A stretch of DNA of 64,000 bases from Sphagnum compactum (Eukaryota). This document shows positions 29,041 through 38,461 of the stretch, in pieces. A program made the translations under genes and the position numbers. The notes below the pieces were generated by a model. It had not been told where the DNA came from. It saw only the letters and a list, made by a program, of their open reading frames with translations, and searched no databases. The stretch covers positions 21,380,213-21,444,212 of the forward strand of contig OZ234493.1 of NCBI GenBank assembly GCA_965153455.1. Reading direction: 5' to 3'. Position 1 is the first letter of the stretch. Every line of letters starts with the position of its first letter.

Positions 29041-30899
29041 TTATCAAGATTCAAATCACATAGGTCATTCTTATAATTTAGGTAGTTTAATAATTTATGG
29101 TTGAATTTGACGTTGTGCTTAGAACATGCAACGACAAATTCAACCATCTATCTATTCACGAAGGTAGTTTCTTTTGTTTTGTTTCTCACATTGAGATCTC
29201 ATAAACCACAGCTAGTTGGTCCAAATCTCCTATTCCTAGTTGACTTTGTTTTGGTCACCATAAATGCAAAAATTCCCCCCTTCAAATAAAGTTTTTGGTT
29301 ATTATAGTTTGTACTTTTAATGTAATCACCTTAAAAGGTTATTATAAATAATTAGTAGACTTTTACAAACAAAATTATAATATATGGATTAATGGCTAAT
29401 TATAAACTTTTATCCATGGTTAAAATAATAATTTCAATAAACTAAAAAATTATCAAATCCAAGGGTGGGGTCATTTCCAATATCCAAGATTCATAGGCCC
29501 CTCCTTTAGAAAATGTACCCACCCTATAACCTTAGGAATAACACACACATATGGCCAACCAGAACCAACACCCACAAACGCACCATTTGGATGGACAATC
29601 CAGTGGATGTGCTAAAATTTTATCCTTTCCTATCCCTGTGCTAACCACCTTGGTCCAAGCTTATTCGCACGATTTTATTTTGTTTTTTTGCCTTCTCAAC
29701 CCTTGGACTTCCCAAAAAGAAATGTTGTGATTCTTTTTTGGACCCACTTGACCACATCAAAACCCCATTCTCCCACCCACTGACCCCCTTAGCCTACTAT
29801 TTTTCTCAACTATGTTTTCACCTGCATATTTCAAATGACCTAATCTCATCCCCACCTACCTACTTGCCCACCCATCTACTTACCAAGTGGCATTCATATG
29901 CTTACCGACCTACCCATCTACCCTTACACACCTACCAACGTCCTACACACCACACAAGTGTAGAAAAATGTTGATGAAATTAGATGTGGGTATTGCAATC
30001 CATGAGGTGTCACTAAATGACGAAATCTGATGAAAGTATTGCATTTCATCATGTAAATGATTGCGCCATCCTTTCACTTTCATACCTACAAGACTTAAAG
30101 GTAGGTACTTACCAAACACCACCTAGCCATACCTACCTACCTGGTCATTAGTATGACCAACCCCCCATTTGGTGATTGTGATGTTTGAATGAAAAAAATG
30201 CAAGTATTACATGTCCATTGGATTTGTTCACACAAGCCACTTATAATGCCCAAATGAAGATAATTGCAGCTACCTGGACAAAGGTATTGCACTAAAGGAG
30301 TATTCTACTTAAGGCATGGACAATTGATCATATATTGCATTAAAATCATGAAGGAAGGTGGGGTGGGGGGGGGGGGTTTTAAAACATTATTGTTCACCAG
30401 ATTGGTCATCTTGAAGAGGGACAAAAAATTAAAAATAAATGAAATGAAAAATTGTAATGTAGCTTAATGCAAAAATAATTGGTCACCTTTAACAACTTGA
30501 CCCTCAACCACCGTAGTTGGTGGTTTGATTACTACATTCGCAATGGATTTGTCAACTTCTGCACTTTGAAAATCTTCACCTTTAGCCATTAATCTTGAAA
30601 GGTCAATTAATGCATTAAGCAGCATTACTTCACTTGGAATATTTTGACCTTCAACCACCACAATCAATGTAGTTATTGAATCATCGACCGTGTTACTAAC
30701 ATCAATGGCTAAGGTTCAATGCATGGACTTTGCATCCTTTTCAACCTTGTGAAAAACACCATCTTCAACTAAACAACCCAATGCACCGAATAATAACCCA
30801 AAAAATTTAACACCACACAAAAGCAAAAAGCAACAGAAGGAGAAAAATGAAGACCAAAAAAAAAAAGGGTAGAAAACAGTAGTAGAAAAAAGTGCTACT

Positions 30900-31900
30900 A
30901 AGATGGTTTTAGGGTTTAGGGTGATGGTAACATTAAGAAAGAGGGAGGTGCTGCCAAAGGGTTTAGGGTGATGGTAACACAAGGAGAGAAAGAAGGCAAT
31001 GGTAGCAAGACCAGGAGAAAAGGAGGTGTTACCAAGAAGATGATGGCAGTAGAACTAAAAAAGAAGGGGGGCAATGGTAGAACAAGGAAAGAAAGGGGGG
31101 CGATGGCAGAACAAAAAAAGAGGGGGGCGATGGCACAACTAGGAACATTAAGAGCAAGAACCACAAATGAAGAATGAGGAGCCACAACCAAGAACACCAA
31201 AAGCGAAAGCAAGGAGCACCAAGAACAAAAACACCAAGAACGAGAGCCAGGAACACCAAGAGCAAGAGCACCAAGAGTAAGAGCATCAAGAGTGAGAATG
31301 AAGAGCAACAGGAGCAGGGGCACCAAGAACAAAAGCCAAGAATGAGAACCAAGAACACTAAGAGCAGGAGTTAAGAGCACCAAGAGTGAAAATAAAAAAC
31401 CAAAAACACTAAAAGCGAGAGCTAGGAACACCAAGATTGAAAGCGAAAACATTAAGAATGAAAACAAAGAACACCAAGAATAGGAACACCAAGAACGAGA
31501 ATTCAAGAACACCAAGAACAAGAGCACCCAAAAAAAGAACCAAAAGCACGTAAAGCAAAAGCGAGGAACACCAAGAGCAAGAACAAAAACACCATGTGTA
31601 GAAGCACCAAAAGCGAGAACGAGAAGCATTAGGAGCGAAAACGAGAAGCACTAGGAGTGAAAACAAGGAGCAAAAACATCAAAAGTGAGAATCAAGTGTG
31701 AAAACATAAAACACCAAGAACAAGAACACCCAAAACGAAACAAAAAAATAGCAAGAATGAAATTGAAAAACACAAGCAAGAACGAAAACGAAGAACACCA
31801 AGAATAGAAAAACAAAGAGCGAAAGCCAAGAGTGAAAGCCAAAAGCACCATAAGAAGAGCAACATGGAAATGAAGAATGAGAGCACGAGACAAAAGTGAG
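30900..31900. repeat. Low-complexity A/G-rich degenerate minisatellite (aagaacaccaagagc-like)
   Basis: Many caccaa(g/a)a units with strong strand asymmetry. Flanked by acctacctac/gtaggtagg tracts in opposite orientation (~29850-30140 and ~31960-32040). Confidence 0.8.
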
Positions 31901-33833
31901 GAGTGAAAGCACATTGACGATGATGACAACGCGATGAAGGTGCCAAGAGGGCGAGAATGGGTAGGTAGGAGGGAAGGAGGTAGGAGGGAGGTAGTTAGAC
32001 ACAAGAGGATAGGTAGGTAGGGGGGTGGCAGGTAGGTCAGAGGAAAGGGCCAAAGATTTTTTTTTTAAAAGCCTCTCGGAGGTAGGAAGAGGGGGAAGGA
32101 GAAAAATCCTTAACTCACCCCAAACTCACCCACCCTCAGGTTCCCATCCAAAAAATCCAGAATGGGGTTTATTGGATGGTGCGTTAGTGGGTGCTGGGTC
32201 ACTAAAGCCCACAGATATAAGGGGTGAAGACCAACAAACGGATATCCCTAACAAACCCCCAAAAAATTATAGGGCTAAGCGATACAGAGTAAAAGACCTA
32301 TACTATATTACATGTACCAAATGATACAAAGAAATTCATGTTTAAAAGAAATTTGAGGACCTTACAGATCCCCCCCCCTCTCTGCTTATGGGAGAAAGAA
32401 AGGTCAAGAGCTTTTACCACCACCACCCAGTGAGCAATTCGATCGAAGCACGAAGCAGTTATTGGTGGGCTCCAGTGATTTTCTTGCGAAAGCGAGCACC
32501 ACTAGCTCGGGCGCTCTCGCACATCTTATCTAAATCATAAGCGGCATAAATGATGTTGATGATGATGATGAGGGTGCGTGCTGATGATGATGATGTGAAG
32601 CTTGAAGAAACAATTAGCTGTGTCCGATTTAAGCGGCTCGTCCAATTTAGTAACAGGCCAGCACTGACAGATCTCAGAATCAGTCGCCGCTACAGCCCAT
32701 CCACGCCACATGCATCGCCACATGGGTAAGATCTAAAATCCAGGCGGTTGCAGAAAAAAGAGCTGCTAGCTAGCGAGCGCAAACAAAATCTTGTTACCTG
32801 GCGAAAGTCCGAAATTAAAAAAAAAATGGGCAAGCTTGACGCTGCATTTGATGATCTGAAGATGATGATGATGACTATGATGATAATTGATGCATTTTTC
32901 TTTCTTTGGGTGTGAATTTAGACCTACTTTTGGGTTTTCTTCATATTTCGACGTTGGAAAGGGCATTTTTCTCCTGGACCTTTTGCAGCCTGGAAAAGAC
33001 AAAGTGAGTTTACCGGAGGATTTTTCAGAGAGATTTTTCAGCAGGTTTGGAGCTGGGTGGTTGGAGACGAGGCTAGCTGCCAGGGTTTTGGAAAAGGGCG
33101 GGCAACGGCAAGAAGAAGAAGACTTTGCTTAGTCCGTCGTCGTAATTAGGTGCACATACTTGTCCTACACTTGCGGGAAATTTTGCCGATCGGAGGGGAA
33201 AAGGGCAAGACTGTCGTGGTAATACAGCTGGTGTACTGACGTTGCTTTTTCGACTACTCCAGGAGCCACGACAACAGCCGCGCCCTAGTGCGCAGTTGGT
33301 GAAGATATTGGGGGAGGAGAGGGAAGTACGATTTTTCCATTTTGGGATTTAATCAGCAAAACAAATATATTTCTGGACCGCAAATGCTAGAACTCGCGGT
33401 TGGATTGATGTGGGTGCATTGATACCTATACATCAGAACTTGCGACATAAGTTGTACATCATGTTTCAGGCAGAGGCTCCAGTCAGCTAGCATGGGTTTG
33501 AAACTCGAGCTTCCGTAGCTCTTGTATAGTTTAATGGGCATGATCTTTAAGAGCTTGCTTTTTAGCAGGTTGTAACCAATAAGAAAAGAATCGATAGTAC
33601 TTTTCCATCTCTGTGGATCTGATACAAGAATTATTCTAGGAACAATGTATCCGATTTCCATTCTCCTAATCTGGTCAGGGTGCAGAAGACTTTTTTTTCC
33701 CCCTCTTTTCCTGTTGTTGTGTGTTTCAGGGAAACATACGCTGAATCTTCCTGACGGAAGGATGAGCGTAAAATCATAGTTCCGAACCTTTTCATTTGCA
33801 TCCTTCAATCTCTACAGTGTCGCAGTTTCCTGC

Positions 33834-33841
33834 TATAAGTA
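33834..33841 (+). promoter_or_regulatory. Candidate TATA box for the miRNA cluster transcript
   Basis: cTATAAGTA ~170 bp upstream of the first hairpin in a CpG-retaining region. Positional inference only. Confidence 0.4.
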
Positions 33842-34004
33842 GCCAGTTGTGTGAAACGATCGATCATACTTGCCTCGAGTTTCTTCTAGTGCGTCTATTG
33901 TGTAAGGCCGCGGTGCGATCAGTAGTTTGTGTAGGTGTGAAGCAATCGTTCCTGCTAATCACGTAGGAGGAATGTGTTTCACATTTGTTTTAGTGCTTTC
34001 GTCG

Positions 34005-34097
34005 ACGCTTCTACAGTTTGTCTAGTGTGACATTCTTCATATTCGTAGCTGCACACGAACGAATGATCTGCACCATAGCCAAGATGACTTGGAAATC
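34005..34097 (+). ncRNA. Degenerate miR902-like hairpin (unit 1)
   Basis: 3' arm tgcacacgaacgaatgatctgcaccatagccaag...ggaaat is homologous to units 2 and 4. 5' arm gtctagtgtgacattcttcat is diverged. Confidence 0.5.
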
Positions 34098-34187
34098 TGC
34101 AACAAGCAAAGCTCATTTAGATTCGTCAAAGCATGTCAACTAGATGTCCACGACATATAGTAAGCTAGGGAGACCGCTCGATAGCTC

Positions 34188-34286
34188 ATTTCCTCCAACT
34201 GGTCTATGATGCAGATTCTTCATCTGCAGACTCGATGCAGATCTTGCACACGAAGGATCTGCATCATAGCCAAGATGCAAGGAAAT
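34188..34286 (+). ncRNA. MIR902: miRNA precursor hairpin, miR902 family (unit 2)
   Basis: 5p TATGATGCAGATTCTTCAT (34205-34223) pairs with 3p ACGAAGGATCTGCATCATAGC (34250-34270). Basal ATTTCCT/AGGAAAT stem. Matches my recollection of Physcomitrium miR902-5p/3p. Confidence 0.8.
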
Positions 34287-34380
34287 TTCCAACATTCAAG
34301 CGACCTTAAATGTTAAGAGTCCTAGTTAGATCGACATCTCAAGTTACAGATATCTCGTGTGCAGTTAACGGCGAAGCTGA

Positions 34381-34495
34381 GTTTTTGTTCAGCTCGTCGA
34401 TGGTGCAGATCCTTCTCTTCAATACTGCAGTCCCTAGATGGGTTCGAGATTCTTGTAAAAGACAGATCTGCAGAATAGCCAAGATACAGAAGCGC
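34381..34495 (+). ncRNA. Divergent miR902-like hairpin (unit 3)
   Basis: 5' arm gtcgatggtgcagatccttctctt and 3' arm aagacagatctgcagaatagccaag retain the TGCAGATC/GATCTGCA core. Confidence 0.5.
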
Positions 34496-34579
34496 GAAAA
34501 GCAGCCAAGCATAAACGTCTAGTCCTCAGATATCAAGTCGCAACGGATCATATGTTAGAGGGATGCTCCCGATCGACAC

Positions 34580-34674
34580 ATTTCCTCCAGCTAGTCTATG
34601 ATGCAGATTCTTCATCTGCAAACTCGATATAGTTGCACACGAAGAATCTGCATCATAGTCAAGGTGAAGGAAAT
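34580..34674 (+). ncRNA. MIR902: miRNA precursor hairpin, miR902 family (unit 4)
   Basis: 5p TATGATGCAGATTCTTCAT (34597-34615) is identical to unit 2. 3p ACGAAGAATCTGCATCATAGT (34639-34659). Basal ATTTCCT/AGGAAAT stem. Confidence 0.8.
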
Positions 34675-37600
34675 CTTTGACACAATCACACGGCAGAATG
34701 TGGCACTTGACCACACAGACGTTCATGCCAAGGCATGACACTCATAGGCACTGCTGGAGTAGAGCTCTTGATTTCTACAACTCTCTCTCTCAAGTAGAAA
34801 AGGATTTTTAAAGTTCTAGATCAGTCGTTAATGTGATCGTCTTCATTCTTCATACCTTCATATTCAAATTAGAGTAGTATTGTAGCATAGTTCTGATTCC
34901 CAGCCCCAGCCCCAGCTTTCCACTCAGATTAAATGTCGAACTCCTCCTCGAAACAGACAGAGTGACCAACGATCTCAGCAGAAAAAATTAAACAAGCTGT
35001 AGATGTTAAAAACCAGTACGAATCCAGACTTGATGGGAAACAACACATTTGAATGCCCGTTGCTCATAATACGCTAGTTGGACCCATTCTTCAGATCTGT
35101 TTCCAAAGGCATTCAGAAACTCTAGTCTAGAGATCTCTTGCCTAGTCCAGGAGCTCCATCTCCTGTTGTATATCTATCTCTGCAATCAGTAATGAAACCA
35201 AGGTCAATAGTCACTACCCCTTTCTTAGCTGCTTAGAGATGCTTCACACTCTTGCTAGCTACTCTCATGTTGTAAATCTATCTGATCTGCAATCATGCGT
35301 GAAACCATGAAGGTCACTCTGGTTTCTTAGCTGCTTAGAAATTCTTCACATATACAGAAACTCCTTGGTATATATATATATGTCTACTTCCAGGATCCAA
35401 CCAAAAGATACTCTCCATAATGAACTTCATGCAAACACTTGTACTAACAACAACCTTGTATCAAATGAGTACAACCACATGGTTACTTCATTTCATACAA
35501 GTGGTTGCACAAAGATCATCATTGCGAGCATCTTGGGCACCATTTTTTTCACAAAATACTTTGCACAAAAAATCATATTTTTCAGGTTGAAAAAATGCAA
35601 ATTTTCACCCCACAAAAAAACCCTTGTCAAAATCGGCCCCAAACCAGTGTTGGGCATGTATATGGTTTTTGATATATAAGTCAAGTGTATTTTAAAATAT
35701 ATTCACATGTAAATGTAGAATGGTGTAATTATAAAATCATAGAATACACACACATCTTGCTTTACACACCGTGTGAAACTGTAGAAAACAACATAAACTA
35801 ATAAATGAAAAAGTGCATGCCCTCACCTTGTGACCTAGCCCCTTTCTCTTGTTTGTTTTCCGTCCCTTTCTTCTTGTTGAACACTTGGAAGCTCCATTGC
35901 CTTTCATTCCATTTGTCCTCTTTTCAATCTTGTTCGGAGAGAGCCTTGAGAAAATCAAATAGAACTTCAAATTGGATGCATTTACAAGGCCACTCGTTCT
36001 ATTTGTTGAGTAGCCCTTCTATTTCTAGCATATTATTCTATTGCTATTGATAAATGAGATTAATATCTTTATCTTTTGATGAATATGGTAAGTTTTGATA
36101 ATTGATTAATAGCTAAGTTATATTTATAAATGAAGAAAACATCTTCAATTTGACCATTTTCTCTCTTCATAAATGATTATAAAAAAGTAAAATGTACAAA
36201 GATTAGAAATGTGTGTCCATGATATTGAATAGGCTACCATTAGTTCCATTGCAGAACAATATAGTACCTTGTAATTGGTGTGACCTGGCTCCAGAGGCTT
36301 CCCCAGATGTTGAATTGAACGTGTGTGTGTGTGTGTGTGTGTGTTGTGGAGGCTTGGAAGTAGATCCTCATTGTGTTGTCCAAGGATCTAATTTTGACAA
36401 CTTGACTAAGGTGGTTGCTGGCGCTTTTTTGCATTGTATGCTGTTGTGGCTATAGCAGATGATTACCCTACCAACACAGATATGAAGTTGATAAACATTC
36501 TCAATGAGAAATCCTTGTCATTTTGAAAAAAATTATAAATGAAAACAAACATAGAAGCGAAGCTAATATTCAACTCAAAAAATATACAGAGGAGCAAATC
36601 CAAATTTAATGACAACAAGAAATGAGAAATTGTATGCTAATGCATGAAAGGAATAGTGAGTTTTAATAAAGGGTCTTCTGATGCTTCAGAAATGACAGTA
36701 AACTGCATTTCTAAGCAATTCTTGTTCCCACTTCAATCTATGATTGTTGCAGGTCACAACAACTTTTGCACAGAAATACACACAACAAGATCTAAGTGTG
36801 TCCTCAGACCCTCGAAACAGTGTCCATAGTAAGGAACTTTTGAACAGAATGTGTCAAGTTTTACAGGGACACGCACATTACAAGTTCCAAGTATGTCATC
36901 AGAGCACGGTAATGTTTCCATGTTAAAGAAGTTTTGCACATTTATACACAACAAGATATAAGTGTCCTTAGCCTGTTTCTGGGTTTCCTCCTCATGAAGT
37001 TCAATGTTGAGAAAAGTTTTTGTTCATCTCTGGCCACGCACTTGTCCGCACAGTAGTTTGCAAAGGGTAGGACTTCTGTGGATATCAATAGTCTTAAACT
37101 TCCATCCCCTTTGCCTACATAAATCGAACTTGCGACGTGCTTCGCAGGGCATGCTCAGACGATTTGAGAGTGGAATGAATACTTCTTTTTCGGGTAGGGT
37201 TCTGATTCACACCAAAGAATGAACTGTTTTTTTACTTGTTAACCGCTTGATATTTTTTTCCCGCTTGCTGGGGAGGAGGAAGGGAACACAGAAACGGTGA
37301 AGGTGTGACGGAATGAAACAGCAGACGAAGATTGTTGTGGAAACAAAGCATTAGCAAAATTGTTGCTTTGGATACTGAGAATTGCGCACCTATTCTCCGC
37401 CCTGTGAATTTGAAATCTATTGAAGAAGATGCAACAGGGCTCCAATATGATCAATGAGAGATCATAAAGAGATCTCCTTCATGGAACTCTGCAGTCAGAC
37501 AAGGTGCAAGTGATTTGCAGTTTCTAGGGTTTATAAACAAAAGAGAGTTACAAAAGAAAAGATTTTATATAGTTCCCTGATTATAATTTCAATCTTCATG

Positions 37601-37844: not shown

Positions 37845-37997
37845 AAATGTGCATGCGATGACAGCTTCCAGATCGAGAAATGCACAAAGCAAGTGATCAT
37901 CAAATACACTACTACTACAAAAATCTTTGCAGATTTCTTCACTGTGGACTTAAAAGTCATCGGTCGACTGGAATATACCTGCACTTAAAGACACTTG
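37845..37997 (-). ncRNA. Possible H/ACA snoRNA
   Basis: Two hairpins (tcttt..tgcagg/tctgcaaaga; gtgta..gatga/tcatc..tgcac) ending in ACAttt. The hinge AGTAGTA is not a canonical ANANNA. Confidence 0.35.
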
Positions 37998-38142
37998 CGA
38001 TGTGGAAAAGAAAGCACAAGGCAAGTAACACGGAGCAGGAGGTTTCTCTAGCACATGCTTAGGGCCTACTCTTCCTTAGAGATCAGAGCTGCCCGGGGAG
38101 CATTGTGCAGCATTCATAATGTTTACTGCTCCAGCCAAGGAA
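37998..38142 (-). ncRNA. Possible H/ACA snoRNA
   Basis: Hairpin ttccttgg..ggagca/tgctcc..ctaaggaa followed by H box AGAGTA (38067-38072), a weak second hairpin and ACA at 38001-38003. Confidence 0.35.
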
Positions 38143-38368: not shown

Positions 38369-38461
38369 GGCCTCATCGATCTTAGTGGTATTGTGTCTAA
38401 TCAGCTGGTGACAAAAAACGTGCACCATCAAGAGTAGCAAATACTGGTATAATCATCGGCC
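38369..38461 (-). ncRNA. U24: Box C/D snoRNA U24 (snR24/SNORD24-like)
   Basis: GGCC terminal stem and C box CGATGA. Guide TATTTGCTACT before D' TTGA is complementary to LSU rRNA AGUAGCAAAUA. C' CTGATTA. Guide ACCACTAAGATC before D-variant ATGA is complementary to LSU GAUCUUGGUGGU. Same dual-guide layout as yeast U24. Confidence 0.85.

Follow-up and report, generated by a model that had tools for sequence, protein, structure and literature searches.

A probable MIR902 gene with two intact precursor units and two decayed copies in the moss Sphagnum compactum

The microRNA (miRNA) family miR902 is called moss-specific in the published accounts that we found, which describe it only from Physcomitrium, and it is with these Physcomitrium patens genes (ppt-MIR902) that we compare a locus at 33998-34680 of a 64,000-nucleotide (nt) stretch of the moss Sphagnum compactum (contig OZ234493.1 of assembly GCA_965153455.1, positions 21,380,213 to 21,444,212 of the forward strand; hereafter the window, numbered from its first letter). 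The expressed miRNAs given in file 1 of PMC9135061 come from the 3' arm (3p) for ppt-MIR902d, f, g, h and j and from the 5' arm (5p) for i, and these six loci (d, f, g, h, i, j) are spread over five chromosomes (Chr01, 02, 18 (twice, 4.4 Mb apart), 13 and 21), unlike the tandem arrangement seen here. PMC4615586 places ppt-miR902g in the 3' arm of its precursor, which DCL1 cuts from base to loop, and describes the Physcomitrium miR902 as 20 nt long owing to an 18-bp duplex. The published targets disagree among themselves: messenger RNAs (mRNAs) of basic helix-loop-helix (bHLH) transcription factors are given in PMC3565333, and PpbHLH as a validated target of miR902-5p in PMC4957126, whereas AGO1 is named in PMC5426797 and a protein kinase in PMC9135061; the bHLH target named in an earlier note, written from the letters of this DNA alone, is thus in print. 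Two members of one family on one primary transcript are known from rice miR166k-166h, as described in PMC5869255. The Sphagnum locus would share this layout, although the family is here a moss-specific one, the intact hairpins are interleaved with decayed ones, and a single molecule is only presumed. We consider it very likely that the locus represents a non-coding gene of the + strand, transcribed by RNA polymerase II, in which two intact miR902 precursors alternate with two decayed copies of the same unit.

The four homologous units were placed as follows:

33998..34100, + strand: unit 1, a decayed relic with a recognisable 3' arm and a lost 5' arm
34188..34286, + strand: unit 2, an intact MIR902-type hairpin by fold and covariance model
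34374..34500, + strand: unit 3, a decayed relic in which the loop is long and the arms are eroded
34580..34674, + strand: unit 4, an intact MIR902-type hairpin by fold and covariance model

The earlier note had described this locus as a polycistron of four fold-backs, yet only units 2 and 4 fold. Their minimum free energies are -46.6 kcal/mol (z-score (z) -6.91) and -48.6 kcal/mol (z -8.83), respectively, with 0/200 shuffles as good in either case, whereas unit 1 (z -0.65, or +0.03 in a tighter frame) and unit 3 (z +0.37, or +0.67 in a tighter frame) fold no better than their shuffles. The orthologous units in two related lineages (L006 and L004, see below) are likewise unfoldable, with z -0.62 and +0.76 for unit 1 and +0.61 and +0.40 for unit 3, and the decay of units 1 and 3 therefore predates the split of these mosses. 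A covariance model trained on 18 intact hairpins, to which units 2 and 4 themselves belong, scored unit 4 at 125.8 bits and unit 2 at 112.3 bits on the + strand, and gave 20.6 bits (E 0.004) for unit 1 and 18.1 bits on the + strand and 24.2 bits on the - strand for unit 3, the best other match in the 64-kb window reaching only 14.9 bits. The 3' arm of unit 1 still matches the 3p core of the family with 2 mismatches. Both unit 1 and unit 3 are thus homologous decayed relics and not hairpins, and the locus is a two-hairpin gene with two decayed relics instead of a four-hairpin polycistron.

The four-unit repeat itself was confirmed. Four copies of a 41-nt 3' segment start at 34053, 34244, 34453 and 34633, with 71, 100, 68 and 85% identity to the unit 2 copy, and a repeat search reproduced the spacings of 191, 209 and 180 bp given in the earlier note for the sequence anchors of the four units. 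A 50-nt 5' segment is present in three copies (at 34187, 34381 and 34579; 100, 62 and 94% identity), and a 24-nt 5p string occurs four times at up to 3 mismatches in the 64 kb, compared with an expectation of 0.00 in shuffled sequence. Units 2 and 4 each form an inverted repeat, in which the arms measure 40-42 nt and are 78 and 86% complementary, respectively; the 5p arm that the two had been said to share over 19 nt is in fact part of an identical run of 27 nt (34202-34228 and 34594-34620), and the proposed ATTTCCT/AGGAAAT basal stems were found and are paired in the computed folds. A duplication of a two-unit block has weak support, as the spacer between units 1 and 2 resembles that between units 3 and 4 with z 2.97, compared with z 1.4-1.7 for the other spacer pairs.

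Membership of units 2 and 4 in the miR902 family, as judged from their arms, is well supported. The comparison was made with the printed ppt-miR902 entries in the supplements of PMC9135061 and PMC4615586, which cover members a-j, k and l being absent from both. For ppt-miR902a/b-3p the precursor stretch printed in file 1 of PMC4615586 is ACGAAGGUCUGCAUCAUAGCCAAG, from which that of c/e differs by ending in ...AGUCAAG. The unit 2 sequence ACGAAGGAUCUGCAUCAUAGCCAAG (34250-34274) equals the a/b stretch at 24/24 positions plus one inserted A, and unit 4 fits the gapped c/e-type pattern at 34639-34663, so that the C/T choice in the ATAG(C/T)CAAG anchor of the Sphagnum units is the same as that between a/b and c/e in Physcomitrium. 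Only these two places in the window match the pattern ACGAAGR N{0,1} TCTGCATCATAGYCAAG, both on the + strand (0.00 expected), and ppt-miR902i-5p matches with 2 mismatches at 34204-34224 and 34596-34616, again on the + strand only (0.01 expected); ppt-miR902j-3p lies within 3 mismatches of 34251-34270. The likeness to miR902 that had been suggested from the letters is hence borne out by both arms, and the two lineages also share a U:G wobble in AGAUUCUUC/GAAGGAUCU.

Searches of the literature gave a first indirect hint in a jute table in PMC4378336, which contains a look-alike of ppt-miR902j-5p sharing GCAGAUUCUUCAU. Exact 20-mers of the arms had no match in the main texts of papers (supplements lying outside that search), 13-mers of the arms were found there only in norovirus primer papers, and further arm strings only in the jute table and in unrelated papers. 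The single paper found to name both miR902 and Sphagnum was set aside, as the two terms are unrelated in it, and so were mentions of miR902 in flowering plants: the relevant passages of PMC4319853 and PMC7366715 are uninformative, and the tobacco 'nov-miR902' is a serial number.

With the register chosen for 2-nt 3' overhangs, the following miRNAs are predicted:

34205..34225, + strand: predicted miR902-5p of unit 2, UAUGAUGCAGAUUCUUCAUCU, register chosen for 2-nt overhangs
34250..34270, + strand: predicted miR902-3p of unit 2, ACGAAGGAUCUGCAUCAUAGC, with a/b-3p likeness and a 2-nt 3' overhang
34597..34617, + strand: predicted miR902-5p of unit 4, identical to that of unit 2, with i-5p likeness and overhangs
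34639..34659, + strand: predicted miR902-3p of unit 4, ACGAAGAAUCUGCAUCAUAGU, with the c/e-type pattern and a 2-nt 3' overhang

In both intact hairpins these would pair as a 21/21 duplex in which either end has a 2-nt 3' overhang, provided that stacking carries on through a conserved A.C mismatch. The lower stem extends about 17 nt below the duplex (14/17 positions are paired in unit 2) and would suit base-to-loop processing, as described for ppt-MIR902g in PMC4615586. One difference from Physcomitrium is the extra A in the 3p arm (GAAGGAUCUG here vs GAAGGUCUG there), from which a canonical 21-nt species is predicted, compared with the 20-nt form and 18-bp duplex in Physcomitrium; another is the tandem arrangement of arrays with a period of about 200 bp and decayed copies.

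Using these predicted products, we also looked at the pairing capacity of the relics. In unit 3, the 5' arm (34397-34417) still forms a duplex with positions 3-18 of the predicted 3p, at -28.4 kcal/mol vs -37.8 kcal/mol for a perfect site (z -8.6), and in unit 1 the 3' arm does so with the predicted 5p at -16.9 kcal/mol (z -5.0). It is conceivable, though in our view very unlikely, that the decayed units are maintained for this reason, each keeping an arm able to pair with a miRNA from units 2 and 4, with the primary transcript as a target or decoy of its own miRNAs and hence a built-in feedback on the cluster.

For transcription, four sequencing runs were compared over 33300-35500, and the stretch was found in runs of the source species, of a second species (organism B), of moss metagenomes and of moss or plant metatranscriptomes; its occurrence in runs labelled moss metagenome or plant metagenome is as expected for a moss host, and so is the presence of plant small nucleolar RNA families 3.3 kb away (see below). 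Two features emerged on the + strand:

33834..33839, + strand: TATAAG, a candidate TATA box that precedes the RNA contig end (33879) by 45 nt, with a putative promoter role
33879..35218, + strand (presumed): transcribed region, a putative primary miRNA transcript, from RNA contigs of a related moss

In a metatranscriptome of a related moss (X15), one RNA contig of 1049 nt corresponds to 33879-34906 and spans units 1-4 at even depth, and a second contig covers 34937-35218 and continues beyond. The first of these begins with 20 adapter letters immediately before 33879, which indicates that many fragments ended exactly there. In X15 the RNA depth rises from 0 at 33596-33817 to 15.8 between 33892 and 35218, whereas the DNA run X11, which carries the same variants as X15, covers the whole region at about 23, and the RNA-silent upstream stretch argues against carry-over of DNA in X15. 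The segment 33780-33878, which holds TATAAG, shows 2/99 differences from the L006-type and 4/99 from the L004-type orthologue, and the longest + strand open reading frame (ORF) with an ATG start in the transcript, outside the indel described below, is 70 amino acids (aa). The locus is probably one transcript from a TATA promoter. The single primary transcript from a TATA box near 33834 that the earlier note had envisaged is in keeping with the relative's RNA contig, which spans all units from 33879, but it would carry two hairpins with relics. The transcribed region also contains a (CCCAGC)3 microsatellite at 34899-34916, where the relatives' contigs break or vary in length.

Searched against metagenome contigs, a 20-nt 5p pattern returned 14 loci, of which 12 moss loci on 11 contigs were kept; the two left out (L002 and L005, a 21-mer without a hairpin) were considered as target sites and rejected, the matches lying inside bacterial or phage-like ORFs and being due to chance. 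The 12 moss loci fall into three types. Orthologues of the locus (L001/L009, L006 and L014 at 96.3-96.6% identity, L004 at 93.8%) all show the same order of decayed, intact, decayed and intact units. A paralogous array (L003, 1176-2089, and L007 from another sample) has four intact hairpins in each case, with spacings of 391, 212 and 200 bp, plus a relic, and includes a compensatory A:U to C:G change in hairpin B and a G:U intermediate in hairpin D. The third type (L008, L010-L013) has two intact hairpins 209 bp apart, together with relics. One metagenome (contig prefix Ga0209208) contains all three types and therefore at least 8 intact hairpins.

Compared with these relatives, the two intact hairpins of the window have hardly changed: unit 2 differs from the L006-type orthologue at 1/97 positions and unit 4 from the orthologues at 1/95, while unit 1 is the fastest-evolving part (5/76 positions changed). 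The single difference in unit 4 lies at 34645, where the A is private to the source species: a G is found in organism B, in X11 and X15 and at every orthologue locus. This bears on the G:U to A:U change between the 3p arms of units 2 and 4, which had been taken as the signature of selection on a miRNA duplex: the difference is real (G at 34256 vs A at 34645) and is accompanied by a second one (C at 34270 vs T at 34659), but since the A at 34645 is private to the species it is not in itself a signature of selection. A suggestion that 5p is more conserved than 3p (5/21 vs 11/21 variable columns) was dropped, because the loci had been fetched by an exact 5p pattern; in three hairpins that were not selected by 5p (L003_B, C and D) the arms carry 5 and 6 changes. 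Length changes among the orthologues comprise a 5-nt indel in the loop of unit 3 in the L006- and L004-type orthologues, and a deletion of 18 nt in L004 (equivalent to 34322-34339), which affects the spacer separating units 2 and 3 and leaves the adjacent hairpins untouched.

Copy number was estimated from the DNA depth over the arms, which was 83.5 and 166.3 in X9 vs about 35-40 for single-copy sequence, and 67.3 and 91.7 in X11 vs 23.3, the extra contigs matching the arms only. Overall this is 2-5x the single-copy level in the two DNA runs, which fits the few paralogous arrays found in the metagenome scan. Plant hairpin loci derived from miniature inverted-repeat transposable elements (MITEs) or other inverted repeats are a recognised class, and the long, near-perfect fold-backs at several loci reported here resemble them. 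The units could accordingly be MITE-like copies or a young inverted duplication that yields heterogeneous small interfering RNAs rather than a miRNA, for which the long arms (42 nt, 86% complementary) and the presence of units at several places in related genomes can be cited. We regard this as extremely improbable, however, as the copy number is small (arm depth of 2-5x, three locus types), the copies stand head to tail in local arrays instead of being dispersed, mismatches recur at conserved positions (e.g. an A.C at alignment columns 46/80 in 11/16 rows), and the arms match an accepted miRNA family for which PMC4615586 describes defined DCL1 cuts in the Physcomitrium degradome. The high-copy MITE raised in the earlier note as a possible objection was not encountered, there being no other copy in the window, and the family is a small one.

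The conservation of structure was assessed in an alignment of 18 hairpins (16 distinct) with 22 consensus pairs, giving 352 cells. These were paired in 97.7%, compared with 31-47% in controls with slid partners. One pair shows AU, CG and GU and another UG, CG and UA, and the covariation score was 0.101 vs 0.079, with 4/500 shuffles as high. The structure is kept, while the evidence for covariation is thin.

Several results weigh against reading the locus as a + strand miR902 gene. Two-sided changes occur in only 1/22 pairs, a count which 180/500 shuffles also reach. In the comparison with the L006 type, 2/192 positions changed in the hairpins vs 24/730 in the rest of the transcript, a difference that is not significant (one-sided Fisher p 0.067), so that a lower substitution rate in the hairpins is suggestive only. 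From the family side, ppt-miR902f-3p has no ungapped match at up to 3 mismatches, and all Rfam matches at the locus stay below the gathering scores, with mir-4679 (32.1 bits vs 88), a generic hairpin likeness, at the top; the best matches go to animal families, and none of the Rfam matches with E up to 10 is named for miR902. The ends of the mature miRNAs are predictions, and the contigs of the runs were assembled from 31-letter words, so that 21-nt reads cannot appear in them. The RNA evidence consists of a relative's contigs, which prove neither the strand nor a single molecule, and in the polyadenylated RNA (polyA) run of the source species (X24; about 12% read, about 12 million records) we found only 2 partial reads with 90-95% likeness. 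Finally, the - strand folds of the two hairpins (-50.9 and -56.1 kcal/mol, z -6.5 and -9.1) are at least as stable as those of the + strand, and the covariance model scores the - strand at 66.8 and 79.5 bits.

As the - strand folds are at least as stable, energy does not settle the strand, and near-palindromic hairpins could be functional precursors read in antisense, with the + strand features being coincidental. Besides the folds and the model scores, such a reading can point to the arms on that strand also being within 3 mismatches of ppt-miR902j-3p. We nevertheless judge it highly improbable: ppt-miR902i-5p and the 24-nt pattern of 3p plus flank match the + strand only, and in the alignment 344/352 duplex cells are paired on the + strand vs 326/352 on the - strand, with 23 G:U pairs vs 5. 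The orthologue substitutions in the arms (34262 C>T and 34645 A>G) likewise give G:U on the + strand and A.C on the - strand, and TATAAG lies on the + strand upstream of the RNA contig end at 33879. The adapter letters in front of that end, which we take to be the end of the Illumina read-2 adapter, would moreover mark the 5' end of + strand RNA if the library, whose type is not on record, was stranded with deoxyuridine triphosphate (dUTP). From the counts of pairs and G:U pairs, the arm substitutions, the 5p and 3p matches, and the TATA box with the RNA start, we infer that the + strand is the precursor strand.

The near absence of reads from X24 could also indicate that the cluster has gone out of use in the source species, with intact hairpins in a gene that is silent or weakly transcribed and about to go the way of units 1 and 3. 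The decay already seen in two of the four units and a 467-bp indel in the transcribed region, specific to the source species and organism B, would be in line with disuse. Yet units 2 and 4 are nearly unchanged compared with relatives that are up to 6% diverged (1 change each vs the L006 type), and the segment 33780-33878 with TATAAG differs at only 2/99 positions. Primary miRNA transcripts undergo rapid processing and polyA libraries often contain few of them, and X24 is one sample of which about 12% of the reads were covered. Disuse is therefore an unlikely explanation, and we retain the reading of the locus as a + strand gene with two intact miR902 precursors.

The results above demonstrate the anatomy of the repeat, the stability of the two hairpins, family membership by sequence, coverage by RNA in a relative, conservation among related mosses and the small size of the family. 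In the course of events that we infer for this gene, which extends from strand and promoter to DCL1 processing, exact miRNA ends and targets, the primary transcript would start near 33865-33879, downstream of TATAAG at 33834, and run for well over 1.3 kb, with units 1 and 3 as probable leftovers of tandem duplication followed by loss. By analogy with ppt-MIR902g as described in PMC4615586, processing of each intact hairpin by DCL1 would proceed from base to loop, with the distance measured off the lower stem (about 17 nt), and yield a 21/21-nt duplex of the 5p UAUGAUGCAGAUUCUUCAUCU with the 3p ACGAAGGAUCUGCAUCAUAGC (unit 2) or ACGAAGAAUCUGCAUCAUAGU (unit 4). The loaded strand or strands would then guide the cleavage of mRNAs, bHLH transcription factor mRNAs being among the reported 5p targets in Physcomitrium. 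On this reading the locus extends miR902 to a further lineage of mosses, in which the 3p arm and the adjacent flank have stayed nearly the same and the family forms tandem arrays gaining and losing copies, and it adds two likely miRNA genes that are beyond the reach of protein-based annotation. Intact and decayed precursors on what is probably one transcript would provide a natural series for asking what DCL1 requires, and the predicted 21-nt variant could be compared with the 20-nt Physcomitrium form; our understanding of miRNAs in general is not changed by the locus.

The rest of the window looks poor in long coding exons, as no Pfam family was found in three ORFs, nor in 49/56 open frames of >=90 aa (7 overlapping frames were left out). 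Upstream of the cluster, at 30900-31850, lies a degenerate, purine-rich tandem repeat (periods 13-52 bp, units resembling CACCAAGAAC), which accounts for the AT skew of 0.43 at 30001-32000 and for a spurious frame of 237 aa (30916-31629, - strand) with no Pfam family.

On the other side, the 467-bp stretch mentioned above (35219-35685) is present here and is covered by contigs of organism B as far as 35500, and it is missing from the L006- and L004-type relatives, in which the sequence resumes at about 35686-35695. It would fall within the relative's transcribed region, and its ends show no terminal inverted repeats and no target-site duplication. This stretch holds a second, unrelated long hairpin (35400-35540), which is more stable on the - strand (-54.3 kcal/mol, z -6.96) than on the + strand (-36.7 kcal/mol, z -4.40). 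It has weak Rfam matches to MIR807 (20.4 bits) and mir-218 (19.1 bits), and the Physcomitrium miRNA list contains 0/6 of its 12-nt arm pieces; the hairpin may represent a further miRNA-like gene. Further along, about 3.3 kb downstream of the miRNA cluster, two plant small nucleolar RNA (snoRNA) genes exceed their Rfam gathering scores on the - strand, snoR134 (H/ACA type, 58.7 bits) at 37971-38110 and SNORD24 (C/D type, 46.2 bits) at 38369-38461, and these probably represent a snoRNA gene cluster.

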